From assembly GCA_964415565.1 (NCBI GenBank), contig CAYQAV010000131.1, positions 291 through 64,290 on the forward strand: a stretch of 64,000 nucleotides of DNA. The letters are read 5' to 3'. Position 1 is the stretch's first letter, and the number at the start of each line of letters is the position of its first letter. The translations under genes and the position numbers were made by a program. The notes under the pieces were generated by a model. The model ran no database searches, was not told the DNA's origin, and saw nothing but the letters and a program-made list of their open reading frames with translations. Origin of the DNA: an uncultured Candidatus Peribacteria bacterium (lineage in GTDB: Bacteria > Patescibacteriota > Gracilibacteria > BD1-5 > UBA6164). This document shows, one piece after another, positions 1 to 64,000 of the stretch.

Positions 1-1567
1 ATCTTTTAAAAATGATATCTCAATCTATATTTATTTTATCTTCTCATTTAATAATAAAAATTTTATCAAATGAATCATTTATAGTAGAATTAGTCTTTTT
101 TATATACATTCATACTATTGTATCTTCAAAAATAGGTTTTCATACTATATATTCACTTCACTTCCATACAGGTTCTTCCAAATTATCCATAAAATACCAT
201 TCTATTTTACCTAATTCTTCTAGACTTTTTGCATCAAATGTAGCAAGTTTTCATCAACTATTTAACTTTTTTTCTGTTATATTAACAACATAAGTTATAT
301 TTATATATGGCATTGTTTCTACTGTTTTTTTAATTTCTTTTCATTGAGAATCAATTCAATTAATAGTTAATTTTATATCAGTAGGTCAGATCTTATCAAA
401 TGTTTTTATTAAGCTAGGTAATACTGTTTCTTGCTTATCTTCTTCTCAAAAATCCCATGAAAAGTTTTTAATAGTTATTCAGTTTTTAATTTCAGCCTGT
501 GCTAAATATGTTAAATCAAACTTTAATTCTATAGGTCAAATTAGATTTTTTGTATCGCTTAATAATGCTGATTCTTTTGTAAAATTTTCATTTGTTAATT
601 TTGCATTATCATAAATTTGAATTTCTCAAAATGACATTTCTTGCCAGTTTGGTAGATTTATTATTTTTTGATCAATTATCATCCATGCAGTTGCCGTAGA
701 AAATGTAATTATTAATAATATAATTGATAATATAGCAAATTTTATTTTTTTCTTTTTAAATTCTTTTTTTGTAAGAAAAAATTTAAACAAAAATATAATT
801 AAAAAAATAGTTTCAGATAATAATATTGTAGAAAAAATGATTGTTATCAATTGAGAAATAAATGCATTTATTTCATTTAGATTTATTCATAACCCCGCAA
901 AAAATCTTACATCATCTACAGTTTTTGCATTTAGTACTACGAATCATAAAAAACTTCATCAAACTATAAGTCAAATTACTGTAATTATTAGTAAAAATGA
1001 GAATATTTGACCAGTACTCATTTTTTTACTTACTTTTTTTTGTTCTAGCTTTGTAACAATTTTTGATTTTATAAATAATTTTTCTCAAAAAGTACTAGGT
1101 ACTACTTTACTAATTAATTGAAAATTTTTATCATCAAAACTAACTCATCAATTTCATTCTTGATTTTTACTTGTATCTTCTAAATTTAATTTAGTTATTG
1201 ATTTAGTTTTTAATACTATATTTGAATAAATAGGATATTTGATATGTTTAGTATCTACAATTACATTATTTTTTCTAAATTCTATTTTTACCATATTTTC
1301 ATTTGGCTCAAAAGTAACAAAATCATAATTTTGTTCATCAAGTAAAAATAAAATATCTTTTAAGGAAGCAATATTTATATCAAAAATATTACTTTTTTTA
1401 TTTTTTATCTCTTCTTTTTTTTCTGGTTCATCAGGTAAATCGAACATTGATACCAAATCTTGGTTATCAATTAATTTTTCATTTTCTGATATATCAGAAC
1501 TGTTTTGGCTTAAATCAGACAATATATCATTTTCTAGATTATCATTATTTTCTTTAGGCGATACCAT
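1..1567 (-). CDS. hypothetical membrane protein, 3' end runs off the window
   Basis: Open from ATG at 1567 to the window edge when TGA=Gly. No in-frame TAA/TAG; checked by hand over 1-1153. Acidic N-terminus MVSPKENNDNLEND, then hydrophobic helices FSFLLIITVIGLIVGG, IIFSTILLSETIFLIIFLF, FAILSIILLIITF. Track ORFs 1154..1567 and 626..850 are fragments of it. Confidence 0.55.
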
Positions 1568-1673
1568 TTTTATTTATTTATAAATTATTTATATTATATT
1601 ATCATAAAATCAACAATTATCATATAAATATATATTGACAAAAAAAAAAGTCATTTTTTTATAATGACTTTTT

Positions 1674-1823
1674 TTATAATCCAGCAGCGGCTTGGTTTAA
1701 ATTACTTGCAACAACAGCAGCAGCAGTTAAGAAAATTAACATATATGTACCTGAGTGAAAACTTGTATTTTTTTCATCCCATGCTTTAATTGCTGCAAAA
1801 ATATTTTTTATTTTTGTTTTCAT
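1674..1823 (-). CDS. small (49 aa) single-helix membrane protein, hypothetical
   Basis: ATG 1823 to TAA 1674: MKTKIKNIFAAIKAWDEKNTSFHSGTYMLIFLTAAAVVASNLNQAAAGL. Followed by hairpin aagtcatt/aatgactt. No family recognised. Confidence 0.4.
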   Translation of the reverse strand: MKTKIKNIFAAIKAWDEKNTSFHSGTYMLIFLTAAAVVASNLNQAAAGL

Positions 1824-1879
1824 ATTTTCTATGATTAATATTAATGTAATAAAATTGTAACATAAAAAAAATAAAAAAA

Positions 1880-1912
1880 CAAAAAAATGAAAAGATTTTT
1901 TCTCTTTTCATT
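1880..1912 (-). terminator. intrinsic terminator after secA
   Basis: Stem atgaaaaga/tcttttcat followed by a T-run on the minus strand, directly after the secA stop. Confidence 0.6.
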
Positions 1913-1913
1913 T

Positions 1914-4511
1914 TTATACTCTAATTTTTTTAATATTTCCATTGTTTATTTTATTAAATAATGGATTTATTTTTTCTTTAATTTTAGTAGTTTCATCTAA
2001 ATTTACTTCATTTAATTCAAAATTTTCTTTAGATAAATCTATTTGCTCAACTTGTTCTATTTTTTTGATAGAAAATATAGCTTTTACAACTTTATATTCG
2101 ATTTCGTTTATTAAATCTCTAAATTTGTAATATGCTTTTTCTTTATAAACAGTTAAAGGATTTTTTCCGCTATATCATTCAAAAGCAACTTCTTCTCTAA
2201 GTTTACTCATTGCATCAATATGTCTCATCCAAAGTTCATCAATAGAACTTAAAACTATCCTTCTTTCTAAATTTAAATATTCATTTTCTGAAGCTGCATC
2301 TCTTTTTAAACTTTCAAATTCTTCAAAAGCTATATTAGAAATATATTTTGATAATTCTTCAGGATTAGAAATTCAAGATATATCATCAATTTCTATCTTG
2401 TCATTTAGAGCATCAATTCATAAAAATTCATTTACTTTTTTTATTATTTTATTGTTTGATGATTTACTAATATTTTCATTTTTTGAAAACTCAGCAGTAA
2501 CTAGAGTAGAAATTTGATTTTCAATCGTATTTCTTATATCCTCATGAATATTTTCACTATCAAGAATTTTATTTCTTCTAGAGTAAATTATATTTCTATG
2601 TTTATTTATAACATCATCGTATTCTAAAATATGTTTTCTTACATCAAAGTTATGTCATTCTACTTGTTTTTGAACTCAAGTAACTCTTTTTGTAAGCATT
2701 CCACTTTGAGCTAAAGGTTCGTCATCTGGAAGGGAAGCAAACATTGGTGAATTAAATACTGAAAATAATTTATCTCAACCAAAAATTCTCATGATATCAT
2801 CATTTGGTGAAATTAAAAATTGAGTAATTCAAGGATCTCATTGTCTACCAGCTCTTCATCTTAATTGGTTATCAATTCTTCTTGTTTCATGTTTTTCAGT
2901 ACCAAGAATTATTAATCAACCTAAATCAGCAACTCATTCTCATAATTTTATATCTGTACCTCTTCAAGCCATATTTGTAGCAATTGTTATTGCTGATTTT
3001 TGACCAGCATTAGCTACTATTTCAGCTTCTCTTTCATGATATTTAGCATTTAAAACATTGTGTTTTATACCTTCTGCTTTTAATCTTTCACTTAGATATT
3101 CACTTTTTTCAACTGAAACTGTACCAACAAGGATTGGTTGTCCAGTTGCATTCATTTCTTTTATAAGTCTAACTACATAATCAAATTTACCTTTTTCATT
3201 TTTGAAAAGTAAATCTGGTCTATCTTCTCTAGCTATTGGTTTATTTGTAGGGATTACAAGTGTATCAAGTCAGTATACTTTGTAAAATTCTTCAGCTTCT
3301 GTAACTGCAGTACCAGTCATACCAGCCAATTTCCAATACATTCTAAAATAATTTTGAAATGTTATTGAAGCCAATGTTTTACTTTCTTGTTTTATTTCTA
3401 CATTTTCTTTTGCTTCTATTGCTTGGTGAAGTCATTCAGAGTATCTTCTACCTGCTAAAACCCTACCTGTATGTTCATCAACTATTTGAACTTCTCAGTT
3501 TAAAACTAAATAATCTTTATCTTTATGATAAACTGCCATAGCTTTAAGTGCATTTTCTACATGATGAATATCATTATAATGATTTGAAACATATATATTA
3601 TCTATTCTTAATAATTCTTCTATTTTTTTAATTCAATCTTCAGTTAGAGTAGCTGTTTTTTGTTTTTCGTCTATCTTGTAATGAATACCATTTTGTAAAT
3701 GTTTTATAAGTGCAGCAAATTGCATATATTTGCTAGTTGGTTCATTGTCAGGCATAGAAATAATAAGTGGAGTTCTAGCTTCATCAATAAGGATAGAATC
3801 AACTTCATCTATAATAGCAAAAAATAATTTACTTTGAGCTTTTTCATCTTTTGAAATAACCATATTATCTCTAAGATAATCAAAACCTAATTCATTGTTT
3901 GTAGCATAAACTATATCACAAGAATAAGCAGCCTTTTTATCAAATTTATTTTGAGAATTTACAACAACTCAAGTTGTTAATCAAAGTGTACCATATAAGA
4001 TCCCCATTTCTCCACTATCTCTAGCAGCTAGGTAATCATTTACAGTAACAATATGAACACTATTTCAAGTAAGTGCATTTAAGTAAGCAGGAAGAGTAGC
4101 AACTAATGTTTTTCATTCTCAAGTTTTCATCTCACTTATATTTCATTCGTGAATTGCTAAACCTCAGATAAGTTGAACATTATAAGGAATCATATTCCAA
4201 GTTACACTTCTACCATCTTTTAATTCAAAAGTTTTACCATTTATAAGTTTTGCAGCAGTTTTTACCAACGCAAAAGCTTCACATTTTATAGTATTTAATA
4301 TTTCTTTTATTTTTTTTGTATCTTCTAAATCTCTAAAATTTAGTCATTCAAACAATTTTTTAAACTCTGCAGTTTTATTTTGTATATCTTCTAAAGTGAA
4401 TTTTTCTTGAGCTTTTTCAAATTCTTTTATTTTTTCTACAAGGCGAGAAATTTCTTTTACTTTCTTTTCACTAGGGTCTCCAAATATGGCTTTAATAATG
4501 CTTTCTATCAT
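1914..4511 (-). CDS. secA: preprotein translocase ATPase SecA (865 aa)
   Basis: N-terminus [25 protein letters not shown]. Motifs [71 protein letters not shown]. Track fragments 3633..3863 and 2964..3155 are in the same frame and join through TGA=Gly. Confidence 0.95.
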
Positions 4512-8078: not shown

Positions 8079-10700
8079 ATGTTTGATATGGGTATTAAAG
8101 TTATTAAAACAAGAGATTGAGATTTGTTACACTTCGATAGAAGTAGAATAGAGAGAGTTATAGAAAAAGCAGCCGAAAGTGTATGAGAAAAAAACCTAGA
8201 TTTTGTAGATTTTATAACTGATAATGTAATTCAAGCATTAGAGTTAAAATTAGAAAAATTTGATAAATCTCAGTTTATAACTGTTGAAATGATTCAAGAC
8301 CAAGTAGAAAGAGAATTAATGGAATCTTGATATTTTCAAGTAATGAAACATTTTATTATCTACAGAAGTAAAAGAGCCGAAGCAAGAGAAAAAGCAAAAG
8401 AAAAAGTAGAAAAAAAATTATCTGAAAATACATTTAAAATTATTAAAACTACTTGAAAAAAAGAAAGTTTTGATATGGATAAAATAGAAAAAACTTATAA
8501 AATCGTAAGTTATTGATTAGCTAGAAAATGTAGATTTGAAGAAATAAGTGATAGTTTTAGAAAATATATCGTTGAATGAATGAAAACAAACGATATAACT
8601 AAGATGCTTATTAAATCAGCTATAGATTTGATTTCTATTGAAAATACTTCTTGGCAATTTATTGCTTGAAGATTGGCTTTAATTGATTTGTATAAAGAAG
8701 CTTCAAACAATAGAAAAATGGATATCAAAAAAATATATGAAGCAAAACATTATGCTGAATTATTTGATGAATATGTAAAATTATGATTATATTCTAAAAA
8801 TTTCTATAATTATTATACAAAAGAAGATATTTTAGAAGCAGGTAAATACTTGAAAAAAGATTATGATTTTGAATACAATTATACAACTATTTTGATGTAT
8901 AAAAAAAGATATCTTTTAAATCCAAATAAGAAAATAAAAGAATTACCTCAAGAAATGTATATGAGTATTGCTCTATTTTTAGCTATGCCTGAACCAAAGG
9001 AAAATAGATTAAAAATTGCAAAAAAGATATATGATTATTGTGCTACTGGTAAAATTTCTCTACCAACTCCAACTCTATTAAATGCTAGAACAAATTTTCA
9101 TCAATTATCTAGTTGTTTTAAATTTAATGTTGAAGATGATTTAAGAGCAATTTATCATTCTATTGAAAATATGGCACAAGTTTCTAAATTTTGAGGATGA
9201 ATTTGAGTTTATCTTTGAAATATTAGAAGTAGAGGGGCAAATATTAGATGAGTAAAAGGTGCTGCAGGTTGAGTTAATCCTTGGATTAAAGTTATAAATG
9301 ATACTGCAGTTGCAGTAAATCAATTGTGAGCTAGAGCTTGAGCAATAAGTGTAACTTTAGATGTTTTTCATAGAGATATATATAGTTTTCTTGATATTCA
9401 AACTGAAACTTGAGATATAAGAAATAAAAGTTTTGATGTATTTCCAGCGGTTTCATTTCCAGATTTATTTATGGAAAGAGTAGCAAATGATGAAAATTGG
9501 ACACTTTTTGATCCAAAAGAAGTAACTGATTTTACAGGTAAAAAATTACAAGATCACTTTTGAGCTGAATTTGAAGTTTTTTATTCTGAGTGTGAAAAAA
9601 ATGAAAAATTAGAATTAAAAGAAGTTATTTCTGCAAGAGATTTGTTTAAAAAATTTTTAAAAGCAACTGTTGAAACTGGTATGCCTTATGCATTTTTTAG
9701 AGATACAGTAAATAAAGCAAATCCAAATAAACATGCTTGAAATATATATTCAACTCAACTTTGTGTTGAAATATGTCAAAATACAAGTCCTTCTAAATTT
9801 ATAGAAGAAACAATTGAAGATGGAAAAATAATTATAAAATACGAGCCAGGAGATAGCGTAGTTTGTAACCTAGCATCAATAAATGTTGCAAAAGTTAATA
9901 CTCCTGACGATATCAAAAAAGTACTTCCAGTTGCTATGAGATTACTTGATAATGTAATTGATTTAAATTTCTATCCTATAAAAGAAGCTGAAAAAACTGC
10001 AAAAAAATATAGATCTGTTTGACTTGGATTTTTATGACTTGCTGAATATTTAGCTGTAAATAAATTGGCATACGATAGTAAAGAAGCAAGAACAGTTGTT
10101 GATGAATTATTTGAAAAATATGCATATCAAACTCTTAAATCTTCAAATGAATTAGCAACAGAAAGAGGAACTTATGAAGTTTATAAATGAAGTGAATGGT
10201 CTAAATGAATATTATTTCAAAAAGATGCTAATTGGTTTAGAAATAATTCAAAAATGAGTGCTGACTGGTTAGAATTAATAGAAAATATTAAAAAAACTTG
10301 AGTAAGATTTGCTTATCACTTAGCTCCAGCACCAAATACTTCTACTGCTTTAGTAGTTGGTACAACAGCTTCAATTTTACCTATTTATAAAAAATATTTT
10401 GTTGAAACAAATGCAATTGCACCAAGTGTAAATGTGGCACCAAACTTAGATGAAGAAAATTTTTGGTATTACAAAGAATATGTAAATATGAATATGAATG
10501 ATGTAATTGATATGGTTTCAGTTATATATAAATGGATAGATCAATCAATCTCATTTGAATGGATGATAAACCCTGCAAATGTTTCTCCAAAAGAGCTTTA
10601 TGAATACTATTTTAAAGCACATAGAGAATGAATTAAAACAGTTTATTATGTTAGATCTATGAGTCTTGAAGTAAAAGAATGTGTAAGTTGTAGTTGATAA
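8079..10700 (+). CDS. nrdA: class I ribonucleotide reductase alpha subunit with N-terminal ATP-cone (873 aa)
   Basis: ATP-cone VIKTRDGDLLHFDRSRIERVI. LPTPTLLNARTNFHQLSSCF. KFGGGIGVYLGNIRSRGANIRG with TGA at 9192, 9198, 9204. STQLCVEI. C-terminal CVSCSG. ATG at 8088 is an alternative start. Confidence 0.9.
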
Positions 10701-10741
10701 TAAAAATAGATATTTTATTTTTATTTTTAAATATATATATT

Positions 10742-11053
10742 ATGGAAAAATCTATAGAATTAAAAGAAAAAATACAACAAATCTATCAATTTGATTTATC
10801 TTCATGAAGTAGATTAGAGGATTATTTGTGAAATACTTTTTATGTATTATCACAGAGAGAATTTTTATTATGATGATGAAAAATTTCTATAGAAGATATT
10901 TTAATATTAGAGAATGAATATAAAAAAATAGTAGAAATAATTTTAAATTCACCAATTCAAAATTTAGTTGATAAATTAAATTCTAACAAACCATCTGAAA
11001 ATTGAACAAATCCAAATATAGAATCAATAAAAATAGCATTTTGAATTAATTAA
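10742..11053 (+). CDS. hypothetical protein (103 aa)
   Basis: ATG 10742 to TAA 11051, open with TGA=Gly: MEKSIELKEKIQQIYQFDLSSGSRLEDYLGNTFYVLSQREF. No family recognised. Confidence 0.45.
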
Positions 11054-11123
11054 TACTATATGTTGTAAAGTATATGATATAAATATAAAAATAGTCAATT
11101 CAAAATATATAAAAATTCTTTTA

Positions 11124-11176
11124 AAAAACTACATATTGTATATAGTTAAATTAACTATATACAATATGTAGTTTTT
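11124..11176. terminator. perfect hairpin with 25-bp arms and 3-nt loop; terminator and/or operator
   Basis: aaaaactacatattgtatatagtta-aat-taactatatacaatatgtagttttt, with an A-run before and a T-run after. It ends 22 nt upstream of the nrdD ATG. Confidence 0.7.
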
Positions 11177-11198
11177 GTTTTTCTAAATTTATTTTAAT

Positions 11199-13403
11199 AT
11201 GTCTATATATAAAGTTAAAAAAAGAAATTGAGCAATAACAACTTTTGAACAAAAAAAGATTGAAGATGCTATAATAAAAGCAATAAAATCAGTTGGTTGA
11301 GATGATTTTACTCAAGTTATTTCTATTACTAATACAATAATTAGTTTAGTTGAAAAAAAGGTTTGAAAAAACATACCAACTGTTGAGCAAATTCAGGATG
11401 AGATAGAAGAAGTATTAATTAAGGAATGACATGATAGTGTAGCTAAAAGTTTTATACTTTATAGACAAAAAAGAAATGAATCTAGAACTGATAAAAATGT
11501 AGTTATAGAAGTAGGTAAATCTATGGAAGAATATTTAGAAAAATCAGATTGGAGAATAAATGCAAATGCAAATTCTGGTTATTCACTTTGAGGTATGATT
11601 TTAAACATTTCTTGAAAAGTAACTGCAAATTATTGGTTATCTCATATATATCCAGCTGAAATTTGAAACTTACATAGAAGTGCAGATTTTCATATTCATG
11701 ATTTAGATATGTTTTCAGGTTATTGTGCTGGTTGGAGTTTAAGGGCATTACTTGAAGAATGATTTAATGGTAGTGATAAGAGAGTTGATTCTTCACCTGC
11801 AAGAAATCTGCAAGCAGCAGTTAATCAAATGATAAATTTCTTATGAACTCTTCAAAATGAATGGGCTTGAGCACAAGCATTTTCAAGTTTTGATACTTAT
11901 CTTTCACCATTTATTCATAAATACAAAGAAGAAATAGAAAAAGAATTAAATGAAGTAAATGCTTCATTTAAAGATGAAAAAGAAAAAAAAGACTATATTT
12001 ATAATAAAACATATAAATATGTTTATCAACAAATGCAAAACTTTATTTTTGGTTTAAATGTACCAAGTAGATGGTGAACACAATCTCCGTTTACAAATAT
12101 AACTCTTGATTGGACTTGTCCAGAAGATTTAAAAGAAAAGGCATTATTCTTAGGTTGAATTGAAAAAGGATATTATAAGAAAAAATATTGAGAATTAGAA
12201 GAGGAAATGAAAATTATAAATAGAGCTTTAATTGAAGTTTATATTAAATGAGATAGAAATGGTAGAGTTTTTACTTTTCCAATCCCAACTTATAATATCA
12301 CTCCAGATTTTCCTTGGGAAGATCCTGATATAGATTTATTGTTTGAAATGACAGCTAAATATTGATTACCATATTTTCAAAATTTTGTAGGGTCACAATA
12401 TAAAAGAGTTAAAAAACCAGATTGAACTATAGAAAAAATTGAAAATCCAGATGCATATAAACCAGGTGCAGTTAGATCAATGTGTTGTAGATTACAACTT
12501 GATTTAACTCAATTAGAAAAAAGATGAGGTTGATTATTTTGAAGTGCGGAAATGACTTGAAGTATATGAGTTGTTACTTTAAATATGGCTCGTATATGAT
12601 ATAACTCGGCTTGAGATAGAGAAGCATTTAAAAATCAAGTAGTTTATCTTATGGAACAAGCAAAAATATCTCTTGAACTAAAAAGAAAAACAATTACAAA
12701 ATGGCTAGAACAATGACTTTATCCTTATACTTATAGATATTTAAGAAGTTTTAGAAATCATTTTTCAACTATTGGTTTAAATGGTATGAATGAAGCAATT
12801 TTAAATTTTACATCTTGAAAAGAAGATATTTCAAGTGATTGGTGAAAAGAATTCACTATGGAAGTAATTGATTTGATGAGAGAAAAACTAAAAGAATATC
12901 AAGAAGAAACTTGAAATATGTATAATCTAGAAGCAACTCCAGCAGAATGAACAACATATAGATTTGCAAAAGAAGATAAGAAACAATTACCAAATATAAT
13001 TCAAGCAGGGACTGAAGAAGCTCCTTATTATACAAATTCTTCTCAATTACCAGTTTGATTTACATCTGATCCATTTGAAGCACTTGATGAACAAAATGAA
13101 CTTCAATGTAAATATACATGAGGAACTGTATTACATTTATATATGTGAGAAAGATTAACAGATAGTAAATCTTGTAAGAACTTTGTTAGAAATGTGTTAA
13201 CAAATTATAGTTTGCCATATATAACTATTTCTCCAACTTTTTCTATTTGTCCTAAACATTGATATGTAAATTGAGAACATGATTTTTGTCCTAAATGTGA
13301 TGCTGAAGTATGATATAATTGAAAAAAATTTGATATAAAAACTAGGGAAATATATACAGATGATAGTGAAAAAATGAAAAAAATTGAAAATGAAGATGTT
13401 TAA
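11199..13403 (+). CDS. nrdD: anaerobic (class III) ribonucleoside-triphosphate reductase, large chain lacking the glycyl-radical domain (734 aa)
   Basis: ATP-cone VKKRNGAITTFEQKKIEDAI. DWRINANANSGYSLGGM, FHIHDLDMFSGYCAGWSL, QAFSSFDTYLSP. Zn-ribbon-like CPKHGYVNGEHDFCPKC. The ORF then ends (..TREIYTDDSEKMKKIENEDV, TAA at 13401) before any RVxGY glycyl-radical motif. Confidence 0.9.
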
Positions 13404-13496
13404 AAATTAAAAATCCACCATTTAATTTACTAATTTATTAAATAAATAAGCAATTTAAGTAGGGGTTATATTATAATTAATTAACCAAATAATATT

Positions 13497-13685
13497 ATGT
13501 CAGCAGTATTTATAAATAAAGAAGGTATGGAAGTTGAAAGAACTAGATGTGAAATCTATACTAGAGTTATGTGATACCATAGGCCAGTTACAAGTTTTAA
13601 TATTTGAAAAAAGAGTGAATTTTATTCTAGAAATTATTTTAAAGAGACAAATCAAAATTTAGATTTCATAAATAAGTATTGTTAA
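13497..13685 (+). CDS. stand-alone NrdD glycyl-radical domain (62 aa)
   Basis: MSAVFINKEGMEVERTRCEIYTRVMGYHRPVTSFNIGKKSEFYSRNYF... matches the NrdD C-terminal consensus (sRv.GY.rpv..wN.GK..E...R). The radical Gly is the TGA at 13572-13574. Confidence 0.7.
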
Positions 13686-13723
13686 TTATAATAATTTAAA
13701 TTATATATTTAATATAAATATTT

Positions 13724-14617
13724 ATGAAGAGAGCCGATATTAAAGTTTGATTTGCTTGTAATAATCATTGTACTTTTTGTGTTCAGTGAGATAAAAGATA
13801 CAAATATAAACCTAGAACTTTAGATGAAATAAAATCAATTATATTAAATGAATATAATTTATGAGCTAGATCTGTAGTTTTCACTTGATGAGAACCAACT
13901 GTTCATCCAAATTTAGTTGAAGCTGTTTCATATTCTAAAGAATTATGATTTATACAAATTCAAATTCAATCTAATTGAACAAATTTTGATGATATAGAAT
14001 ATATAAAAAAATTACTTAATGCATGAGTAACAGAATTTAGTCCTTCAATTCATTGATTTAAAAAAGAAACTCATGATAAGCAAGTTTGAACACCTTGAGC
14101 TTGGGATAGGGTTGTAAGATGATTAATTAATTTAAGAAAACTAAAATGTTTGGTTATTATTAATTCTGTAATTACAAATGATAATTATAAAGAAATTCCA
14201 TTACTTGCTAAGTTACTTATAGATTTAAAAGTAAATCAATTTCAATTTGCATTTGTTCATATATTATGAAGTGCAGATAAAAATAAAGAAAGTGTTGTTC
14301 CTAAAAAATCTATTGTTATACCATATGTTCATAAAGCACTTGATTTAGCAAAAAATGCTTGAATTCCTGCTTATACTGAAGCAATTCCTTATTGTTTAAT
14401 GCAATGATATGAATATGCAATTTCAGAAAATATAATGCCAGAAACTTCTATAAATGATGCAGAAATGAGAACTGAAAGTTATGCAGAATATAGATGGAAT
14501 GAATGAAAAACAAAAAGAGAAGAATGTAAGTCTTGTTCTAAATATGAACTTTGTGAATGACCGTGGAAAGAGTATCCTGATATGTATGGTTGGGATGAAT
14601 TTGTTCCTTTAAAATAA
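13724..14617 (+). CDS. radical SAM protein (MoaA/NifB/PqqE-like) with C-terminal Cys-rich motif (297 aa)
   Basis: CxxxCxxC cluster GFACNNHCTFC, GGEPT motif VVFTGGEPTVHP, C-terminal CKSCSKYELCEGPW. Confidence 0.8.
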
Positions 14618-14621
14618 AAAT

Positions 14622-15323: not shown

Positions 15324-15356
15324 AATATTACTTTTATAAAAGTAATATTTTAGTTA
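15319..15356 (+). terminator. intrinsic terminator after nrdG
   Basis: Inverted repeat taaaatattactttt / aaaagtaatatttta followed by T-rich sequence. Confidence 0.6.
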
Positions 15357-15380
15357 TTTTAATAATTAATTTACAAATAA

Positions 15381-16124: not shown

Positions 16125-16134
16125 ATAAAAATAT

Positions 16135-16842: not shown

Positions 16843-16851
16843 CAATATATT

Positions 16852-17859
16852 ATGATAAATTATTTAGAATTTTTAGATAAAAAATTATGATTTTTGTTGT
16901 CTTCAATTCCTAAATTAAAAGAATATTTAGATACAAATTGAATTGATTATTTAGAAAAAGATGAATTAAGTTTAAAAGATTTTTTTAATAGCTTTTCTGA
17001 TAATTTTTATATAGAAAAAGCTACAACTAAGCAAATATTATCAAGTAGTTTTTATGAATTTTATATAAACCTAATTAAGCAAAATAGTAATAATTTACTA
17101 TTGGATATACATGAAATTACTATAAAATCGTGAAAAAACAAAAACTGAATAAATGAAAATTTTTCATCTTTAACAATTAAAAGGTGAGAGGTAATATCAA
17201 TTGTTTGACCTACTTGATCTTGAAAATCTAGATTACTTGCAGATATAGAATGGATGGCCTGCAAAGATACACCAACAGATAGAACTATATTTGTAAATGG
17301 AATACTTCCACCAAAAGAACTTAGATATTCTAGTGATTTTAAGTTAGTTGCACAATTAACTCAAAATATGAATTTTATTATGGATTTAACAGTAGAGGAT
17401 TTTTTAGTATTACATGCAGAAAGTAGAAATATTTCTGATGTTGAAAATACTGTAAAAAAAATAATAGAAGAAGCAAATAAATTATCTTGAGAATCTTTTG
17501 ATTGAAAAACATTTATTACATCTCTCAGTTGATGACAGTCAAGAGCATTAATGATTGCAGATATTGCTATTTTAAGTAAATCTCCCATAGTTTTAATTGA
17601 TGAGATTGAAAATGCATGAGTTGATAGAAAAAAAGCACTTAGTTTATTACTTAGAGAAGATAAAATAGTTTTGATAGCAACTCATGACCCTATATTAGCA
17701 TTGTCTTGAAATAAAAGAATAGTTTTAAAAGATGGTTGAATAAATAATATAATAGAAATAAAAGAGGAAGAAAAAGCAATATTATTAAAATTAGAGGAAT
17801 TAGATAAAAGTATTTTGTTTTATAGAGAAAAGCTTAGAAAGTGAGAAAAATTAATATAA
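16852..17859 (+). CDS. ABC-type ATPase with ~110-aa N-terminal extension, no adjacent permease (335 aa)
   Basis: Walker A GPTGSGKS (the three Gly are TGA at 17206, 17215, 17221), signature LSGGQ (TGA 17530, 17533), Walker B VLIDE, H-loop ATHD. Confidence 0.8.
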
Positions 17860-17885
17860 AAAACTATAAATTTTATAGTTTTTTA
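17858..17885 (+). terminator. intrinsic terminator after the ABC ATPase gene
   Basis: aaaactata..tatagtttt palindrome with A-run and T-run flanks. Confidence 0.55.
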
Positions 17886-17895
17886 TATTGCAATA

Positions 17896-17943: not shown

Positions 17944-17954
17944 TTTTAGAAAAT

Positions 17955-18501: not shown

Positions 18502-19548
18502 ATGACAGAACAACAACTGAAAGCAAATCCAATTTTTAATCCAAAATGAAATGATGATGTTGCAGATAGAACAATAATAAAATGAAATACAACTGGTTTA
18601 TTTCAATTAAATGCAGTTAAGTATAATTGGGCAAAAAGTTTATATCAAGTTATGGTTTGAAATTTTTGGCTTCCAGAAAAAGTAAAATGACTTTGAGAAG
18701 ATGCTAATCAATTTAAAAAAGAATTAACTGCTGATGAAGCTAGAGCATATAAATGAATATTATCTTTTTTGATATTCTTGGATAGTATACAAACTATGAA
18801 TTTGCCAAATTTTTCTGAATATGTAACTGCTCCTGAAGTTAATCTTATACTTTCTATACAAACTTATCAAGAAGCAATTCACTCTCAATCTTATGCTACT
18901 ATTTTAGAAACAGTTGTTGATTCTAAGGATAGAGAAGAAATATACTATTTTTGGAGAAATGATAAGCATTTACTTGAAAGAAATGAATTTATCGGAGGTA
19001 TTTATCAAAAATTTATTGATAATCCAAATGATGAAAATTTCTTTGCTTGAATAATTTGAAATTTTTTACTTGAAAGTATTTATTTCTATAACTGATTTGC
19101 ATTTTTTGATACTCTTGCTGATGCATGAAAAATGGTTGCGACAGATAGAATGATAAATTATATTAGAAGAGATGAATTAACTCATGTTACTATTTTTGCT
19201 AATTTAATTAAAGAAATCAAAAAAGAATTTCCTGAAATGTATAGTGAAAAACTTATACTTGAAATGATGGATACAGCAGTTAAACAAGAAGTAAAATGGT
19301 CTAAACATATTCTTTGAGAAAAAATTATAGGTATGGGTCATGAAAATATAGAAAACTATACAAAATGGCTAGCTAATGAAAGATTAAATATGTTAGGTAT
19401 AAAACCACTTTATCCAGATGTAATAAAAAATCCATATAAACATCTTGATAGATTACAAGATAATAATGGTGAAAAATGAAATTTCTTTGAATCTACAGTT
19501 ACAAATTATGCACAATCAAGTGCTATGAAATGAAGTTGGGATTTCTAG
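18502..19548 (+). CDS. nrdB: class I ribonucleotide reductase beta subunit (348 aa)
   Basis: NWAKSLYQVMVGNFWLPEKV, LDSIQT, IQTYQEAIHSQSY, FYNGFAFF, IRRDELTHV. Di-iron/tyrosyl ligand pattern. Confidence 0.9.
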
Positions 19549-19581: not shown

Positions 19582-20496
19582 TTATCTTAAATTATCTTCA
19601 TGTACACTATTTGCTGCAAGACAACCTTCTGCAGCACTCATAATAGTTTGTTTAAATTTATTTGAATTTGTAGTTACATCTCAAGCAGCATAAAGTCATT
19701 TTACACTAGTTTCTTGTCTTGCATCAACTACTAAACATCATTCACTATCTTTTTCTAATCATAAATTATCAACAATTGAAGTATTTGGTAGTGTTCCAAC
19801 AGCTACAAATATACCATCTGCTTTTAATTCTTTACCTGATTTTAATTTTATTCAAGTCATACCAAGAGCGTCTCAAACTATCTCTTCAACTTCTTCATTT
19901 AATACCATTTCAATATTTTCTTTACTCATTGCTTTATCTACCCATGAAGTTTCAGCTCTAAAAGTATCTTTTCTATGAACAATATACACTTTTTTACAAA
20001 TATCTGACAAATAAAGAGCTTCAGTTATTGCAGTATTTCATCCTCAAACAATAATAACTTCTCTATTTCTAAAAAACAGTCAATCACAAGTAGCACAATA
20101 ACTTACTCATTTTCATAAAAATTCTTTTTCACCTTTTGCTCAAAGATGTCTATGATTATTTCAAGTTGCGATAATTACATATTTTGATTTAAATTCTTTT
20201 CAAGAAATTGTTTTTATATGGAAATTATCTTTGTGTTTAGTTACTTCACTAACAAATTCGCTTAGTATTTCACTTCCTGAACTTAAAGAGTGTTCTTTGA
20301 AAGAATCCATTATTTCTTTTCCTGGTGCAGAAATAGTTCATGGCCAATTTTCAACTCTATGAGAAGTTGCCAAAGCTCAACCAGGTTGTGCTCAAATAAT
20401 TAAGTTTTTTATCTTATATCTACTAGCATACATTCAAGCAGGGTATCAAGCTGAACCAGCTCAAACTATAATTAAATCATAATCTATATTAGTCAT
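19582..20496 (-). CDS. trxB: thioredoxin-disulfide reductase (304 aa)
   Basis: DLIIVGAGSAGYPAGMYASR, redox centre CATCDG, GGGNTAITEALYL, GLYAAGDV. By hand count, 20 of its 31 Gly codons are TGA. Confidence 0.9.
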
Positions 20497-21086: not shown

Positions 21087-22307
21087 ATGAGTAGACAAGT
21101 TTCAAATAGAGAATTAGAACAATTTCAAGAAAATATAGAATATCTAGGTTGAGAACTTAGAGTTTTTTTGGCTGATATTCTTCCAGAAGATATAGAAATA
21201 AGACACAACATGGAGGATAGGATGAGAGAACTTGAAAATCTTGTAAATACATACGGCTGAGTTGTTATCGTTAAGCATATTCAAAATAAAAGTGTTCCAG
21301 ATTACAATACTTTTATTTGAGAATGAAGACTTGATCAAATAATTGAAGAAATGCAAAGAGAGGAAGCAAATATTTTGATCTTATGAAATATTTTAAAGCC
21401 AAAACAAATCTATGCTATAAATGAAAAACTTAAACCAATTTGAGCAAAAGCTTGGGATAGAGTTGATCTTATCTTAAAAATATTTGAAAAAAATGCTAAA
21501 ACTAAAGAATCAAAGATTCAAATAGAATTAGCAGCAATAAAACATATGTGACCTCGTATTTTTGATATGTGAATGGAACTTTGAAAACAAGCTTGAAAAG
21601 GTAGTTGAGAGTCAAATACTGAAATAATGAAAAGACATCTTCAAAGAAGAGTTTTAAATATAAAAGAAGAACTTTCTCATTTTGAAAAAGTTAGAGCTCA
21701 ACATAGACAATCAAGAGATAGGAAATGAATTAAAACAGTTTGAGTTGTTGGTTATACAAATGCCTGAAAATCAACACTTACAAATAGTTTAACAAATAAA
21801 TGAGTATTGGCAGAAGATAAGCTTTTTGCTACACTTTGAACAAGTGTTTGAAAAATGTTTGTTGAAGCAAGTTATGATGAAAAAACATTTCAATATATTG
21901 CTCCAAAAGAGATTCTTATAAATGATACAATTTGATTTATAAGGGAACTTCCACCTCAATTAATAGAAGCATTTAAATCTACTCTTGAAGATTCAATAGA
22001 AGCAGATTTACTCTTACATGTTATAGATTGCTCTGATCCAAAACTTGAAAATAAAATAAAAGTAGTAGAAGAAATACTTGAAACAATAAAAGCAAATCAA
22101 AAAAGAATCTATGTTTTTAATAAGATAGATTTCTTATGAAATGATGAATTTATAGTAGAAGAAAACTGAGAAAAAATAGTTTATAAAACTAAAAAAGAAT
22201 ATTTAAAAGAAAAATACTCTAATTTATGTCCTATATTTATTTCTGCATCAAATAAGGAAAATTTAGAAGAATTAAAAACAAAAATAATAAATGAATTAAA
22301 TTTTTAA
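21087..22307 (+). CDS. hflX: GTPase HflX (406 aa)
   Basis: HflX N-domain ([14 protein letters not shown]), G1 GYTNAGKSTL (the G of AGKS is TGA 21765), G3 NDTIGFI, G4 FNKID. Confidence 0.9.
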
Positions 22308-34421: not shown

Positions 34422-35960
34422 ATGATAAGTAAAATAAACTCTATTGCTATAAACTGAATTGTTTCTGATTTGATAGAAGTTGAAGTTGATATAAATACAT
34501 GACTTCCTAGTTTTACGATAGTTTGATTGCCTGACCAATGAGTTCAAGAAAGTAAGGAAAGGATTAGATCAGCTTTAAAGTCTAGTAATTCAAAATTACC
34601 AACTTCTAGAATTACTATAAATCTAGCACCAGCAGATATAAAAAAATCATGACCTAATTTTGATCTAGCAATTGCAATTGGGATATTAAATCATGAATGA
34701 GTTATAAATGATGATTATTTAATAGATAGTATATTTGTCTGAGAATTGTCTCTTGATTGAAAACTTAGAAAGATTTCAGGAGTGCTACCAAGTACTATTT
34801 GAGCAAAGGAAAAATGATTTAAAAGAATATTTTTACCACTTGAAAACTCACTAGAAGCATCAATTATTCCTTGAATTGATATAGTTTGAATAAATAATTT
34901 AACTGATTTAATTGATATCTTAAATAAAGATAAACCGTTAGAATTAATTCCAAAACTGGATTTTAAAAATTTAAATAAAGATGATTTTATAGATTCTAAA
35001 TATGATTTAAAATATATTTTATGACAAAATCATGCAAAAAGAGCTCTTGAAATAGCTGCAAGTTGAGGACACAATATAATTATGAGCTGACCACCAGGTT
35101 CTGGAAAAACTATGCTTAGTAGAGCATTTTCAACAATACTTCCTGATTTAACAATTGATGAAGCAATAGAAGTTTCAAAAATTTATAGTATTTCAGGACT
35201 TTTAAATAGTGAAAATCCTATAATTACAAGAAGACCATTTAGAGTTATACATCATACTGCAAGTTCTGTGAGTATTATTTGATGATGAAGAAATGCAAAA
35301 CCAGGTGAGATTTCTCTAGCACATAAATGAGTTTTGTTTTTGGATGAAGTTTTGGAGTTTAATAAAAGTGTTTTGGAGGTTTTAAGACAACCAATCGAAG
35401 ATTGAGAAATCACAGTAAATAGGATAAATGCAAGTCTGACTTATCCAGCTAAATTTATATTAGTTTGAGCTATGAATCCTTGTCCTTGTGGTTTTTTATC
35501 TGATCCAGACAAAGATTGTATTTGTACTTTTAGGCAAATAGAAAATTATAAAAGCAAACTTTCATGACCACTTATAGACAGGATAGATATATTTATAGAA
35601 GTACCAAAAGTAAAAGTATGAGAATTTAAAGTTGATGAAAAATATGAAAATGCAGTTACTTCTAAAATCATAAAAGACAAGGTTGAAAAGTCTAGAATTA
35701 TCCAATTAGCTAGATTTAAAAATACAAAAATCACTTTTAATAGTGAGATGACAACAAAGGAAATAAACAAATATTGTCAGCTTGATAGTGAAAGTGAAAA
35801 TATCTTAAAACAAGCAATTGCAAGTTTAAATCTGTCAGCTAGAGCTTATTATAGGATACTCAAATTATCCAGGACTATAGCGGATTTAGAGTGAAGTGAT
35901 GATATAAAAAAAGAGCATATATTGGAAGCTCTTAGTTTTAGGAAGAGGGAGGAGAAATAA
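34422..35960 (+). CDS. comM: Mg-chelatase-like competence protein ComM/YifB (512 aa)
   Basis: [102 protein letters not shown]. Confidence 0.9.
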
Positions 35961-43713: not shown

Positions 43714-43748
43714 AAAAACCCCACGCATGCGTGGGGTTTTTCTTTTTT
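43714..43748. terminator. GC-rich bidirectional terminator
   Basis: aaaaaCCCCACGCatGCGTGGGGttttt. This is the only G+C-rich terminator stem I saw in the window. Confidence 0.75.
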
Positions 43749-44504
43749 TCAAAATCTGAGATGCAATCTATCTTTTAATTTCAGATAGAATGACGCAAAT
43801 GTGAAGATAGCACTAATCACAAGTAATATTCCACCAATATAGTCAAGATATAAATCAAACCTGTTAAGGCTGACTACATATATGGTAATTACTTTAAATA
43901 CTGTTTTTGTTTTTCCGACCCAATTTGCTGCAGGGTTGCTAGTTTTTGATCTCATGAATTGACCAGCGATGTCTACCATTGAGATAAATATCGCAGTAAA
44001 TACAAAAAAGTTATTATTAGCAAACAAGCAAACTATTGCAAGGATTATTAAGTCCAAGAATTTGTCTGCAAATGGGTCTAATACTTTTCCCAAGTTTGTT
44101 ACATTATTCAAGCTCCTTGCAACTGCACCATCAAGTGCATCGGTTACGAATAAAAACACATAGAATTGCAATAAAATTGAGCTAATTACAGTTTCTTTGT
44201 AAAAGATTACTGTAATTATTGCCAATGGTATAGAGAGATAAACTCTCCACATGCAAATTCCATTTCCGGATAGGAGAGGTGCATCAATATAAAGTTTAAA
44301 CCTTTCAATTGTATTTACAGGTTCTATTTCATACTTATGAATAGCAAAACACTCTCTTATTTTTCTATATCGAAGTCCTCTGTAAACAATCCAAAGAATA
44401 ACGATAACAACTATCAAACTACTCAAAAATTCCATTTGTAAAATTTGATTTTCAGCAAAAGAATTTTTTAGCAGTAGAAACTCTAATGCATAATTATCAA
44501 ACAT
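43749..44504 (-). CDS. CDP-alcohol phosphatidyltransferase family membrane protein (251 aa as a standard-code ORF)
   Basis: DALDGAVARSLNNVTNLGKVLDPFADKFLD = D-G-x2-A-R-x8-G-x3-D-x3-D signature. SD GGAGG 7 nt before the ATG. No internal TGA. The apparent stop is TGA (43749-43751). Under code 25 it would extend 31 codons to TAA at 43656-43658. Confidence 0.85.
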   Translation of the reverse strand: MFDNYALEFLLLKNSFAENQILQMEFLSSLIVVIVILWIVYRGLRYRKIRECFAIHKYEIEPVNTIERFKLYIDAPLLSGNGICMWRVYLSIPLAIITVIFYKETVISSILLQFYVFLFVTDALDGAVARSLNNVTNLGKVLDPFADKFLDLIILAIVCLFANNNFFVFTAIFISMVDIAGQFMRSKTSNPAANWVGKTKTVFKVITIYVVSLNRFDLYLDYIGGILLVISAIFTFASFYLKLKDRLHLRF

Positions 44505-46831: not shown

Positions 46832-48127
46832 ATGAAGAATAAAATGAAGAGTTTAAAACAAGAACTTACAGATAGAGGATTATTATACCAATTTTCAAGT
46901 GATGAATTATTTAAAAAATTTGATGAATGAAAAGGTAGTTTTTATTGTGGATTTGATCCAACTGCTGATTCTTTGCATCTATGAAATTTTATTGGTTTTA
47001 TGGTTTGAGTTCATCTTATGAGAAGATGAAATAAATACTTTGCATTAACTGGTTGAGCAACTGGTATGATTTGAGATCCAGGATGAAAAGATAGTGAAAG
47101 AAGTTTTCTTTCACCAGAAATTTTGGACAATAATCAAAAGAAAATATCATCTCAAATTACATGAATCTTAGAAAATTTGAAAAATTTTACTTGAAATGAA
47201 TTTAAGTATGATTTTGTAAATAATAAATATTTTTATGATTGAATGTGATACTTAGATTTTCTTAGAGAAGTATGAAAATACATAACTATAAATGTTATGA
47301 TGAGTAAGGATACAGTTAAAAAAAGAATTGAAGATCCAGATAAATCTATAAGTTATACAGAGTTTTCATATATGCTTTTACAAGGTTATGATTATTGTAG
47401 ATTATTTAAAGATGACTGAGTTACTCTGCAAATTTGAGGTCAAGATCAATGGTGAAATCTAGTAACTTGAACTGAACTTATTAGAAAAAAATATGAAAGT
47501 GAAGCTTATGCTTTAACTTGGCCATTGATTACTGATTCAACTTGAAAAAAATTTGGTAAAAGTGAATGAAATGCTATGTTTTTAGACAAATCTAAAACAA
47601 GTCCATATTTCATATATCAATATTTTATGAATACTGCTGATGATGATTTAGCTAAATATATGAAGATGTTGACTTTAATCGAAACTGAAGAAGTAGATGA
47701 AATAGTTGCTAATCATATGGAACATCCAGAAAATAGGGAAGGACAAAAAATGCTTGCTTACAAGATAGTTGAAATAATTCATGGAACTGAGGAAGCTAAT
47801 CTAGCTTTGAAAATTTCAGATTTTATGTTTTGAGATAATGATAAATTAGGGATATTAAAATCACTTAATTCAGAAGAAATTGATACTTTTAAATTAGCTA
47901 TGTGAGGTTTTAAATATAATTGAGAAAACTTATTTGAAACAATAGTTACTTCTGGACTTGAATCTTCAAATTCAAATGCTAGAAATGCAGTAAAATCAGG
48001 CTCAATTTATATAAATGAAGAAAAAGTAATTGATTTTAACTTAGAATTAAAAGATAGATTTATAAATGATAAAGTATTACTTTTAAGAAAAGGGAAGAAG
48101 AATTTTAGGATAATTGTTAAGTATTAA
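46832..48127 (+). CDS. tyrS: tyrosine--tRNA ligase (431 aa)
   Basis: [16 protein letters not shown] (HIGH), GGATGMIGDPGG, GGQDQWGN, KFGKSEGN (KMSKS), C-terminal S4-like domain. Confidence 0.95.
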
Positions 48128-57184: not shown

Positions 57185-58447
57185 TTGTTATTAGTAAGAT
57201 GAAAAAAAGAACTTATTTGAAAAGTTCAAATAAGTGGTTCAAAAAATGCAGCACTACCTATGCTTTGAGCGGCTTTACTTTTAAACTGAAAAGTTAAATT
57301 AAAATCTATGCCTAAAATTTGAGATGTTCAAACATTTCTTGATATTTTGGAATGAATTTGAGTTAAGTATTCTTGGGAAGGGAATACATTATTTTTTGAT
57401 TCATCAAATATAAATAATGTTAATCTTAATTTTGAAAAGATAAAAAAAATCAGATCTTCTATTTTCTTACTTTCACCATTATTACATTTTTTTGGTAAGA
57501 TAAAAATACCATTTCCAGGTTGATGTAGCATAGGTAAGAGACCAATTGATGCACATTTAAATTGATTGGAAGCAATTTGATATAATTATACTTTTGAAAA
57601 TGACGAAATTATTCTTGATTGAGTTTTAAAAAGTTGAGACAAGATTTTAAATGCTTGATTTTGAGTTAGCTCAACTGAAAATTTAATTGTTGCAAATGTA
57701 CTTAGAAATTGAGTAACAATTATAAAATCGGCAGCAATAGAACCACATGTTATGAATTTAATTAGTTTTCTAAGAAGGGCAGGAGCTGACATAAAGATAA
57801 GATATAATCATGAAATTATTATATCTTGAGTTAGTAAATTATCGTCAGATTTTGAATTTGAAGTTGTTACTGATTATATAGAATCAGGAACATATATGAT
57901 TATTTGAGCATTAGCTTCAAAAGAATACTTGGATATAGTTGATGCAAGAATAGATGATTTATATGTTTTTATAGAAAAATTAAAGGAAGCTTGAGTAAGA
58001 GTAGAAGATTTATGAAATGATACACTTAGAGTTTATAGAGCTGAAAAATTAAAAGCTATACAAGTACAAACAAATTTATTTCCAGGTTTTCCAACAGATT
58101 TACAATCGCCATTTGCTATACTTCAATCGCAAGCAGAGTGAGTAAGTAAGATTCATGAAGTATTATTTGAATGAAGATTAAATTTTTTAGTAGAACTTGA
58201 AAAAATGAGAGCAAATGTTGCAGTTATGAATCCTCATGAAGCACTTATATTTTGACCAAATAAGTTAAAATGAGGTGTTACAGTAACTTCTTGGGATTTA
58301 AGAGCATGAGCTGCAATGGTTATTGCTTGACTTATAGCCGAATGAGAAACAAAAATTACAAATGTTGAATACATATATAGATGATATGAAGATTTTGTAA
58401 ATAAATTAAAAGATATATGAGCTGATTTAGAAGAAGTTAATGATTAA
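57185..58447 (+). CDS. murA: UDP-N-acetylglucosamine 1-carboxyvinyltransferase (420 aa, TTG start assumed)
   Basis: LLVRGKKELIGKVQISGSKNAALPMLGAALL, GGCSIGKRPID (active-site Cys), SSTENLIVANVL, AIEPHVMNL, TDLQSPFAIL, GYEDFVNKL. No in-frame ATG occurs between the upstream TAA (57161) and the conserved N-terminus. Confidence 0.85.
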
Positions 58448-59829: not shown

Positions 59830-60399
59830 TTATAAATTTCTTTCATAAAGCCATAGTGAAATAAACGAAATTAATCTCTTTAAATCTTTTCAACAATTAC
59901 TCTGAGGTTTCTTTGAAATATTATTTTTAATCTATCTTTTTATATGAGTCAAACATCTTTGAATTTTAGCATTTGGAAATACTTTTTCAATTGCTTTTTT
60001 AATATTTTTAGCTCATTCTACAACAACTCACTCTATTTGATATTTAAATTCATCTTTAAGAACTTTCAAGTCTTCTTTTATATATTCATATCTTTCTGAA
60101 TTATAAAATCAAAAATAGATTACTTTTTTATTTATATAATCATAGTAAATAATTAAACAAATCTTTTTAGTAATCCAAGTTCAATCAATCATAATATATT
60201 TAACATTATCAAAAATTAGATCAATTTGATATATAAAATTATTATCTAATTTTCCTCTGATATATTTTAATAAATCTAGTGTATATTTTGATTTTTGAAG
60301 TCATAATTGTCTTGATGAATATCATTCAGTTAACCAATCAGTAAATATTTTTTCTAATTTAATTTGATGGATTTTTGTATCATGATTTTGCGTGACGAA
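59830..60399 (-). pseudogene. relic of an IS256/Mutator-type DDE transposase
   Basis: ..IMIDGTWITKKICLIIYYDY..VVVEGAKNIKKAIEKVFPNAKIQRCLTHIKR-TAG-IKNNISKKPQSNCGKDLKRLI. No start codon at the open end (TAG at 60400-60402), an in-frame TAG at 59932-59934, and the C-terminal catalytic region is missing. Confidence 0.55.
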
Positions 60400-62414: not shown

Positions 62415-62447
62415 AAAAAAAGTTCTAGAAAATCTAGAACTTTTTTT
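62415..62447 (+). terminator. intrinsic terminator after the MgtC-like gene
   Basis: aaaaaaAGTTCTAGA-aaa-TCTAGAACTttttttt. Confidence 0.75.
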
Positions 62448-62464
62448 GTAAAATATTTTATGTC

Positions 62465-62786
62465 CTTTTGTGAAATATCTTCATACTTTTGTCACCAAAA
62501 GGTAGCAAAAGTTTTAGGGGTTTTTGAACTAGCTTGTTAAGTTTTATCTCTTACGGCTAATAATCACTATCTCAACCTCTAAGACCCCTGGATGTTTCTA
62601 GAAGTTTTTTAAAAAATAATTTTAAGAAAAAAAATGCAATATAACACTCAATGAGAATTTACATCTGTTTTGTGCTCATTGCGGATTTTTAAGGCTGCAT
62701 AAGCCTTAAAGAATTTTGGTACCTTTTGGTCACAAAAGTACATATTGTTTTCTTTTGGTTACAAAAGTAGGAAGTGTTTTCTTTTG
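62465..62786. repeat. cluster of CTTTTG/CAAAAG hexamers including three 16-bp palindromes CTTTTG-N4-CAAAAG
   Basis: Palindromes at 62486-62501 (tcac spacer), 62723-62738 (gtca) and 62752-62767 (gtta). Extra half-sites at 62465, 62506 and 62781. No convincing ORF on either strand. Confidence 0.7.
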
Positions 62787-62838
62787 CCTTTAATCATATT
62801 TAAAATATAATCAACTTATTATTAATAATAAAAAATAA

Positions 62839-63945
62839 ATGAAATTTGTATTATCAACAATCGCTTGAGTAGAAAGTATGGCAAAAAAAGAAATAGAAAA
62901 ACAAGGTTGAATTATAGAAGAAACTATAGATAGACTTATAACTTTTTCATGACCAATTGAACTTATTCCTAGAATAAATTTATGGTCTAGAGTATGAAAT
63001 AAAATGTATATTTTATTAGCAGAAAAGGAAAATGTAGTTACATTTGATGAACTTTTTGATTTAGTTTCAACTATTTCTTGGAAGAGTTATTTTAAAAAAA
63101 ATTTTCCTATTATTGTGAAATCAAACTCTACTAGAAGTGAACTTTTTTCTGAGAGAACGCTTCAAAGTTTAACTAAAAAAGCGATTATAAAATCAAGAGT
63201 TTGAAATGATTGAATAGTTGATGAAGATATTTCTTTAGAAAAAATGGAAATTTTGGTTTTACTTATTGATAATAAAACTAGAATTTTACTAAATACTTCT
63301 TGAAATGCTCTGCATATGAGAGGTTATAGAAGTAAAGCTTGAGAAGCTCCTATAAAAGAATCTCTTGCGGCAGCTCTTGTTTTATTATCTGGTTGGAAAT
63401 TTAGAGAACCATTTTATGATGTTTTCTGTGGTTCTTGAACTATTGCAATTGAGGCTCTTATGCTTGCAAAAAATATAGCACCAGGACTTAAAAGAAAATT
63501 TGCTTTTGAAAAATTATGATTAGTAAATCCTGAAATAATAGAAAATGAAAGAGTTTTAGCTAGTAAAAAACAATTTGCTTGAGAATATATAATTAGAGCA
63601 ACTGATATAGATCCTGAGATGATAGAATTAGCAAAAGAAAATGCTAGAATTGCATGATTAGGATGAGAAATAAATTTTGAAGTAAAAGATTTCAGAGAAT
63701 ATATGGATAAACCAATTTCATGAACTCTTGTTTCAAATCCTCCTTATGGAGAAAGATTGAAAGATGAAAATTTAAAATCTATGTATAATTCGATAGATAA
63801 ATTATTTAGATTAAATCCAGATTTAAATGGTTGAATAATTTCTAGTCTTATGGAATTTGATAATTTGATTAAAAAAGAAACATACAAAAAAAGAAAACTT
63901 TATAATGGTGGGGAAATGTGTTATTTTTGGAAGAAAAAAATATAA
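62839..63945 (+). CDS. THUMP-domain SAM-dependent RNA methyltransferase (RlmL/UPF0020-like, 368 aa)
   Basis: THUMP-like N-terminal half, [36 protein letters not shown] (motif I), [11 protein letters not shown] (motif IV). Confidence 0.8.
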
Positions 63946-64000
63946 TTTTTTATTCATTTTATTAATTTATACTTGAGCAAATTAGTCATTTATTTTTAAT

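Follow-up and report, generated by a model that had tools for sequence, protein, structure and literature searches.

Genetic code 25 in a 64-kb chromosomal stretch of an uncultured Candidatus Gracilibacteria bacterium: UGA is read as glycine

In which genetic code is a stretch of DNA written, when a standard gene search finds hardly any gene in it? This question is raised by the 64,000 bases analysed here, positions 291 to 64,290 of contig CAYQAV010000131.1, which we call the window. Their guanine plus cytosine (GC) content is 23.3%, and the table 11 list of open reading frames (ORFs) for the 64 kb holds just two of at least 140 amino acids. An earlier reading made from the letters alone (hereafter the sequence-only reading) had proposed that the TGA codons within the genes stand for glycine, as in NCBI table 25, and had placed the source organism among the Gracilibacteria. 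We found that UGA is a sense codon in the window, that its meaning is glycine and that the DNA belongs to the Gracilibacteria. We are nearly certain of the complete picture, in which the window comes from the chromosome of an uncultured member of Candidatus Gracilibacteria (BD1-5, Candidate Phyla Radiation (CPR)/Patescibacteria) that uses table 25, with UGA for glycine, UGG for tryptophan and UAA and UAG as stops. The reassignment itself is already known as established biology in both the Gracilibacteria and the Absconditabacteria; the window is one more example of it.

We measured the share of the window that is covered by stop-to-stop ORFs of at least 100 amino acids. With the standard stops the coverage was 16% and no ORF was longer than 261 amino acids, while it rose to 93% when TGA was taken as sense, and 29 ORFs then reached 300 amino acids or more. 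TAG or TAA as sense served as controls and gave a coverage of 20% and 63%, respectively, the latter without comparable long genes. Read in this way, the window (1..64000) contains about 62 protein genes which are open only with TGA as sense. In 62 ORFs there are 853 in-frame TGA codons and 313 GGN codons, and not a single in-frame TAA or TAG; the complete genes end with TAA (52) or TAG (9). UGA makes up 73% of the glycine codons and is hence the preferred one. When TGA is counted, glycine reaches 6.0% of all residues, compared with 1.6% when it is not. The in-frame TGA codons are distributed evenly along the genes, with 3.6% in the last 30 codons and 4.5% in the gene bodies.

The ORF translations were also scanned against Pfam with every TGA masked as X. 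Domains were matched end to end in TGA-rich ORFs, as in the barrel of the ribonucleotide reductase (RNR), where the match covered positions 1-523 of 523. Full-length domains confirmed SecA, RuvA, RmuC, NrdA, NrdD, an NrdG-like activase, NrdR, NrdB, TrxB, HflX, DAHP synthase, Mtn, LuxS, Apt, ComM/YifB, TsaD, TyrS, MurA, an M3 peptidase, UDG, L25 and others. The claim that the recognisable genes are chopped by the standard code and restored by reading through TGA was therefore borne out by both the coverage and the full-length Pfam matches. The Rfam scan of the window gave no match.

The meaning of the codon was read from standard-code homologues. TGA was kept masked and the residues that the homologues carry at TGA positions were tallied, in the style of Codetta. 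An alignment to reference families had been suggested by the sequence-only reading, and when it was run for SecA, NrdA and NrdB it put TGA on glycine and not on tryptophan. The SecA references came from a homologue search and comprised 120 sequences of 37-55% identity, the named ones from Chloroflexi, Acidobacteria, Planctomycetes and similar groups. References for NrdA and NrdB were taken from loci of the genome collection, and the NrdA set consisted of 21 standard-code bacteria and archaea. Glycine was the top residue in 19 of the 22 alignable TGA columns of SecA and made up at least 95% in 14 of them, and tryptophan was at 0 throughout. In NrdA, glycine topped 21 of 26 TGA columns and was invariant (20/20 or 21/21) in 12, and the TGG columns held tryptophan or an aromatic residue. 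The NrdA homologues 7agj and 5im3 from the PDB gave the same picture by eye. Pooled over the three proteins, the 55 TGA columns had a mean glycine frequency of 0.68 (background 0.061) and a mean tryptophan frequency of 0.013 (background 0.014). Among the conserved columns, 32 of 34 with TGA read as glycine, compared with 20 of 25 with GGN codons, and tryptophan was found at none of the 34. All other codons with enough columns read as in the standard code; the pooled tally contained no CGN column.

The individual motifs from which glycine had originally been deduced gave a similar result, since every cited position is indeed TGA and in frame in the named gene. In the ABC-type ATPase (16852..17859, plus strand) the Walker A motif GPTGSGKS (TGA at 17206, 17215 and 17221) and the signature LSGGQ (17530 and 17533) hold five TGA codons, and Pfam recognised the protein (PF00005, 54.9 bits) only when these five were translated as glycine. 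The first glycine of the Walker A motif GPPGSGKT in the Mg-chelatase-like ATPase gene comM/yifB (34422..35960, plus strand) is a TGA at 35088, and the G1 motif NAGKS of hflX (21087..22307, plus strand) carries one at 21765. The hand count for trxB (19582..20496, minus strand, 304 amino acids) was exact, with 20 TGA and 11 GGN among 31 glycine codons. In nrdB (18502..19548, plus strand, 348 amino acids, 13 TGA) the tryptophan of the motif YNWAK is encoded by TGG at 18628. One detail did not stand. Three TGA codons of nrdA, at 9192, 9198 and 9204 (codons 372, 374 and 376), had been given as invariant glycines, which is true for the last two (glycine in 21 of 21 homologues), but at 9192 the homologues have alanine or serine (10 Ala, 10 Ser, 1 Gly).

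A second test, independent of any translation table, is offered by related loci. A scan of the genome collection with NrdA led to seven loci, all from metagenome-assembled genomes (MAGs) titled Candidatus Gracilibacteria bacterium, and exact-protein lookups added three more syntenic loci which cover 29-57 kb of the window, so that 10 related loci were compared in total. The seven MAG loci are 70-97% identical to the window in protein (NrdA) and 78-95% in DNA, with conserved synteny and a GC content of 23-25%, and they uphold the placement in the Gracilibacteria. The nearest relatives are Gracilibacteria MAGs, 'Sandtown' ones and others (JAQUZB01, JAQTWV01, JAQVDN01 and JABWCI01), and JAQUZB01 (GCA_028691535.1, isolate STD2_250) is the closest deposited genome, at about 95% nucleotide identity.

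When the TGA codons of the window were compared with these 10 loci, the 1,592 cells of the comparison contained TGA 1,313 times, GGN 203 times, and TGG and TAA once each; the remaining 74 were mainly codons for Ser, Ala, Asn or Lys. Among the 279 changed cells, GGN accounts for 203 and TGG for one. Many of the GGN replacements are GGT, which lies two base changes away from TGA. In the reverse direction, a GGN codon of the window corresponded to TGA in a relative 166 times. Counted per site, GGN occurs in at least one relative at 143 of the 586 TGA sites covered and TGG at one, and in the relatives TGA and GGN are absent from all 91 TGG sites. By this pattern of exchange, the synonyms of TGA are the GGN codons, and TGG is not among them.

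Several observations weigh against this reading. Glycine was not the top residue at 5 of 26 TGA columns in NrdA and at 3 of 22 in SecA, although GGN codons scatter in the same way in the same alignments. No tRNA gene came up when the window and 16 related loci were scanned for them. Furthermore, one gene, which we refer to as gene 43, has TGA in the stop slot only, both in the window and in one related locus (L035).

Gene 43 encodes a CDP-alcohol phosphatidyltransferase (43752..44504, minus strand) and is one of the two long table 11 ORFs of the window. Its body of 251 codons has nine GGN and no TGA. We compared it with seven orthologues (L035:10001-10822, L036:10064-10843, L038:10001-10789, L040:2043-2843, L041:9954-10754, L042:3938-4756 and L043:10001-10747). 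In the gene 43 bodies of these eight code-25 genomes all 89 glycine codons are GGN and none is TGA, while in the neighbouring genes 36-81% of the glycines are written as TGA. Among 181 ORFs with at least eight glycine codons (about 60 families), all eight gene 43 orthologues ranked within the 12 lowest P values and took seven of the first eight places, and this was the only TGA-free family. The avoidance concerns in-frame TGA only, and out-of-frame TGA trinucleotides are present. The GC content at third codon positions (GC3) is also unusual, with 0.27 in gene 43 against a median of 0.10, and 0.16-0.29 in the orthologue family against about 0.10.

The sole TGA of gene 43 (43749..43751, minus strand) stands in the stop slot, filled by TAA or TAG in orthologues, and lies 7 nt upstream of a terminator hairpin. 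This hairpin is part of a bidirectional intrinsic terminator, AAAAACCCCACGCATGCGTGGGGTTTTT (43714..43741), between the convergent genes 42 (the M3 peptidase) and 43, and is conserved in the relatives. Three orthologues carry a TAA or TAG at a distance of 0-20 nt upstream of the conserved terminator. Under code 25 the translation of gene 43 would cross the hairpin and reach a TAA at 43656-43658. Since this stop lies beyond the hairpin, a gene 43 transcript ending at the terminator would carry no stop codon. The tails that read-through would add in the window and in L035 differ in reading frame, which means that no protein sequence is conserved there.

We considered several origins for this gene. 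A recent import from a standard-code donor had been suspected from the GC3, the GGN-only glycines and the TGA before the terminator, but was rejected because the family is Gracilibacteria-specific, with homologues 47-100% identical, and because the order TsaD, gene 43, M3 peptidase is syntenic in five genomes. A phage origin was rejected as well, as IMG/VR held no relative and phage records gave only PgsA-like hits at 27-33% identity. Translational selection alone does not account for the codon usage, given that C-ending and G-ending codons are both enriched. Within the library searched, no paper brought up Gracilibacteria and the CDP-alcohol phosphatidyltransferase family together. The simplest reading of gene 43 is an unusual constraint on synonymous sites together with a tolerated stop-loss mutation. 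A more speculative idea, which we consider rather unlikely, is that gene 43 is kept free of TGA by selection and that these bacteria decode UGA under certain conditions only. The supply of tRNA-Gly(UCA) might be limiting or regulated, for example in a control layer similar to bldA, or some context-dependent termination might persist; in either case gene 43 would need to be read and ended properly without relying on UGA decoding.

Gene 43 also provides what can be said for a mixed meaning of UGA, that is, glycine within genes and stop in some contexts such as the end of gene 43 before the terminator. The absence of in-body TGA from the family in eight genomes, the TGA in the stop slot in both the window and L035, and the tails that differ in frame and are unconserved as protein would all fit it. 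We still regard it as very improbable. A stop-like role of TGA close to gene ends in general found no support, and the last 30 codons are no richer in it than the gene bodies. There is one such gene only, among about 60 families, and a tolerated stop-loss mutation accounts more simply for its terminal TGA. In addition, release factor 2 is reported to be missing from the lineage (PMC6851277).

The code 4 of the Mycoplasma type, in which UGA encodes tryptophan, shares with the window a very low GC content and a UGA that is clearly sense, and can be set aside with hardly any doubt. Tryptophan at the TGA columns does not exceed the background and appears at none of the conserved ones; TGG replaces TGA in one of the 1,592 cells, and no TGG site ever becomes TGA. 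Code 4 would also put tryptophan at 5.0% of the residues. The sequence-only reading had argued that tryptophan stays TGG, and in this it was right. Least credible of all is a standard code with pseudogenes, frameshifts or sequencing errors, or with TGA as selenocysteine, for which nothing speaks except the fragmented look under table 11, while 853 in-frame TGA codons stand beside no in-frame TAA or TAG, the TGA codons are kept or exchanged for GGN in 10 independent assemblies, several metagenomes independently contain the window sequence, the TGA positions align with glycine and not with Cys or Sec, and selenocysteine is not known to reach 4.4% of codons.

Glycine at UGA requires a decoder, and we looked for it beyond the window with a structural pattern scan of the metagenome collection, which combined a UCA anticodon with the glycine identity elements G1-C72, C2-G71, G3-C70 and U73. 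The scan returned 29 tRNA(UCA) genes of ordinary size, which ARAGORN calls SeC solely by their anticodon. Several of them lie on other low-GC contigs whose ORFs are open only with TGA as sense. On one such contig (L106, GC 25%) the ORF coverage rose from 0.14 to 0.88 with TGA as sense, and the neighbour of its tRNA gene is a homologue of window gene 29 (44% identity). The tRNA(UCA) genes on these other contigs support a decoder at the level of the lineage.

A release factor domain was not among the Pfam results for the window. For the Gracilibacteria as well as the Absconditabacteria, the literature describes the change of UGA to glycine, along with the tRNA-Gly(UCA) that is expected and the loss of release factor 2 (PMC8629427). 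No BD1-5 genome showed a prfB (PMC6851277), and glycine at UGA in Gracilibacteria was validated by proteomics (Hanke et al. 2014, PMC4032931). These three reports agree with the statement of the sequence-only reading that the reassignment is known for the group. As cited in PMC8629427, code 25 goes back to Rinke et al. 2013 and Campbell et al. 2013. From this lineage literature we infer that a tRNA-Gly with the anticodon UCA would decode UGA in the window, that release factor 2 was probably lost, leaving release factor 1 to end translation at UAA and UAG, and that strong AT mutational pressure may have driven GGA to UGA.

The arginine codons would fit the same pressure. CGN codons are nearly extinct, with 16 among 19,355 codons (CGT 12, CGA 2, CGC 1 and CGG 1), and arginine is written AGA (516) or AGG (47). 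This is consistent with the AT pressure invoked for GGA to UGA. The two CGA and the one CGG of the window all lie outside alignable conserved columns. In gene 43, one relative has AGG in place of a CGA at a conserved arginine position, a sign that CGA may still stand for arginine in the window. The sole CGG of the window is codon 686 of the predicted secreted-protein gene described below. In one related locus (L012, JBBILU010000034.1) the sole CGG, at L012:11695, falls on codon 707 of NrdA (about 10197-10199 in the window), where 21 of 21 standard-code homologues have tryptophan. This single site is anecdotal, and it would be consistent with the published prediction that CGG encodes tryptophan in some Gracilibacteria.

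The gene secA (1914..4511, minus strand) encodes 865 amino acids with 25 TGA codons, and tyrS (46832..48127, plus strand) 431 amino acids with 21 TGA and 17 GGN. In these two genes TGA makes up only about 50-55% of the glycine codons, against 73% overall, and the same is seen in the relatives, which gives a hint of a slight bias towards GGT in certain genes. murA (57185..58447, plus strand) has at least 26 TGA codons. Its probable start is a TTG at 57185 and not the first ATG at 57260, since the Pfam match would otherwise begin at profile position 26 and since the protein from this TTG is 420 amino acids long, as in the relative L036.

The RNR genes form a dense cluster (8079-19548) with the class I genes nrdA and nrdB, the anaerobic nrdD with its radical-SAM activase, and nrdR. 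Interspersed among these are a hemerythrin/ScdA-like gene, a CobW-like GTPase and the ABC ATPase, and trxB comes after. The large subunit of the class I enzyme, nrdA (8079..10700, plus strand), encodes 873 amino acids with 26 TGA codons, and nrdD (11199..13403, plus strand) 734 amino acids with 35 TGA codons and a full-length match to PF13597. The presence of aerobic and anaerobic RNRs together is notable for so small a genome. A long tblastn span in the NrdA of relatives had been taken as a possible intein or insertion. This was withdrawn, as the NrdA ORF in L007 has 870 amino acids, and the ATP-cone of the neighbouring NrdD probably accounts for the extra span.

A predicted secreted or surface protein of 786 amino acids (48203-50563, plus strand) has 40 TGA codons and a long Asn-Thr dipeptide repeat (NTNTNT...); it had no Pfam match. 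Likewise without a Pfam match is a short ORF at 59932-60192 (minus strand), whose C-terminus, KIQRCLTHIKR, gave us the impression of what is presumably a transposase fragment. In the related locus L038 (JASMTS010000015.1), the M3 peptidase has two neighbours (L038:12844-14384), an RVT_1 reverse transcriptase and a gene that resembles bAvd. The pair looks like a diversity-generating retroelement and is absent at the syntenic place of the window.

The practical consequence is that table 11 pipelines fragment this contig, so that code 25 is essential for its annotation, for estimates of binning quality and for homology searches. Such damage had been foreseen and can be seen in public data: the window sequence recurs in several metagenomes of the Joint Genome Institute (JGI), where the public gene calls are chopped, for instance into pieces of the Mg-chelatase gene of 48-56 amino acids. 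The one new lead is gene 43 with its steady avoidance of TGA, which, if it holds up across whole genomes, could tell whether UGA(Gly) decoding is costly or regulated in recoded bacteria.

Among known systems, gene 43 can be set beside the code-11-compatible phages predicted for Gracilibacteria and Absconditabacteria (PMC10746230). Like gene 43, these lack in-frame TGA and have a further stop downstream where TGA is the terminal codon. However, gene 43 is chromosomal, syntenic and Gracilibacteria-specific, and the phage collections hold no close homologue. For the window as a whole, code 4 of the Mycoplasmatales/Entomoplasmatales and of insect endosymbionts is a parallel in which UGA likewise changed from stop to sense in an AT-rich reduced genome, but the amino acid is tryptophan there and glycine here. 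In the Absconditabacteria CGA and CGG have moved to tryptophan (PMC8629427), whereas CGA apparently still encodes arginine in the window. Another counterpart is the closed genome of a Gracilibacterium (BD1-5), likewise a CPR bacterium, from an oil-degrading community, which combines code 25 with a low GC content as the window does; it is of marine origin, has a GC content of 28.9%, lacks prfB and retains prfA (Sieber et al. 2019, PMC6851277). With 23% GC the window is close to the lower limit of the GC contents published, 0.21-0.53 (PMC8629427), and it agrees with NCBI table 25, the Candidate Division SR1 and Gracilibacteria code, in the code itself, in the low GC content, in the heavy use of UGA and in the lineage.

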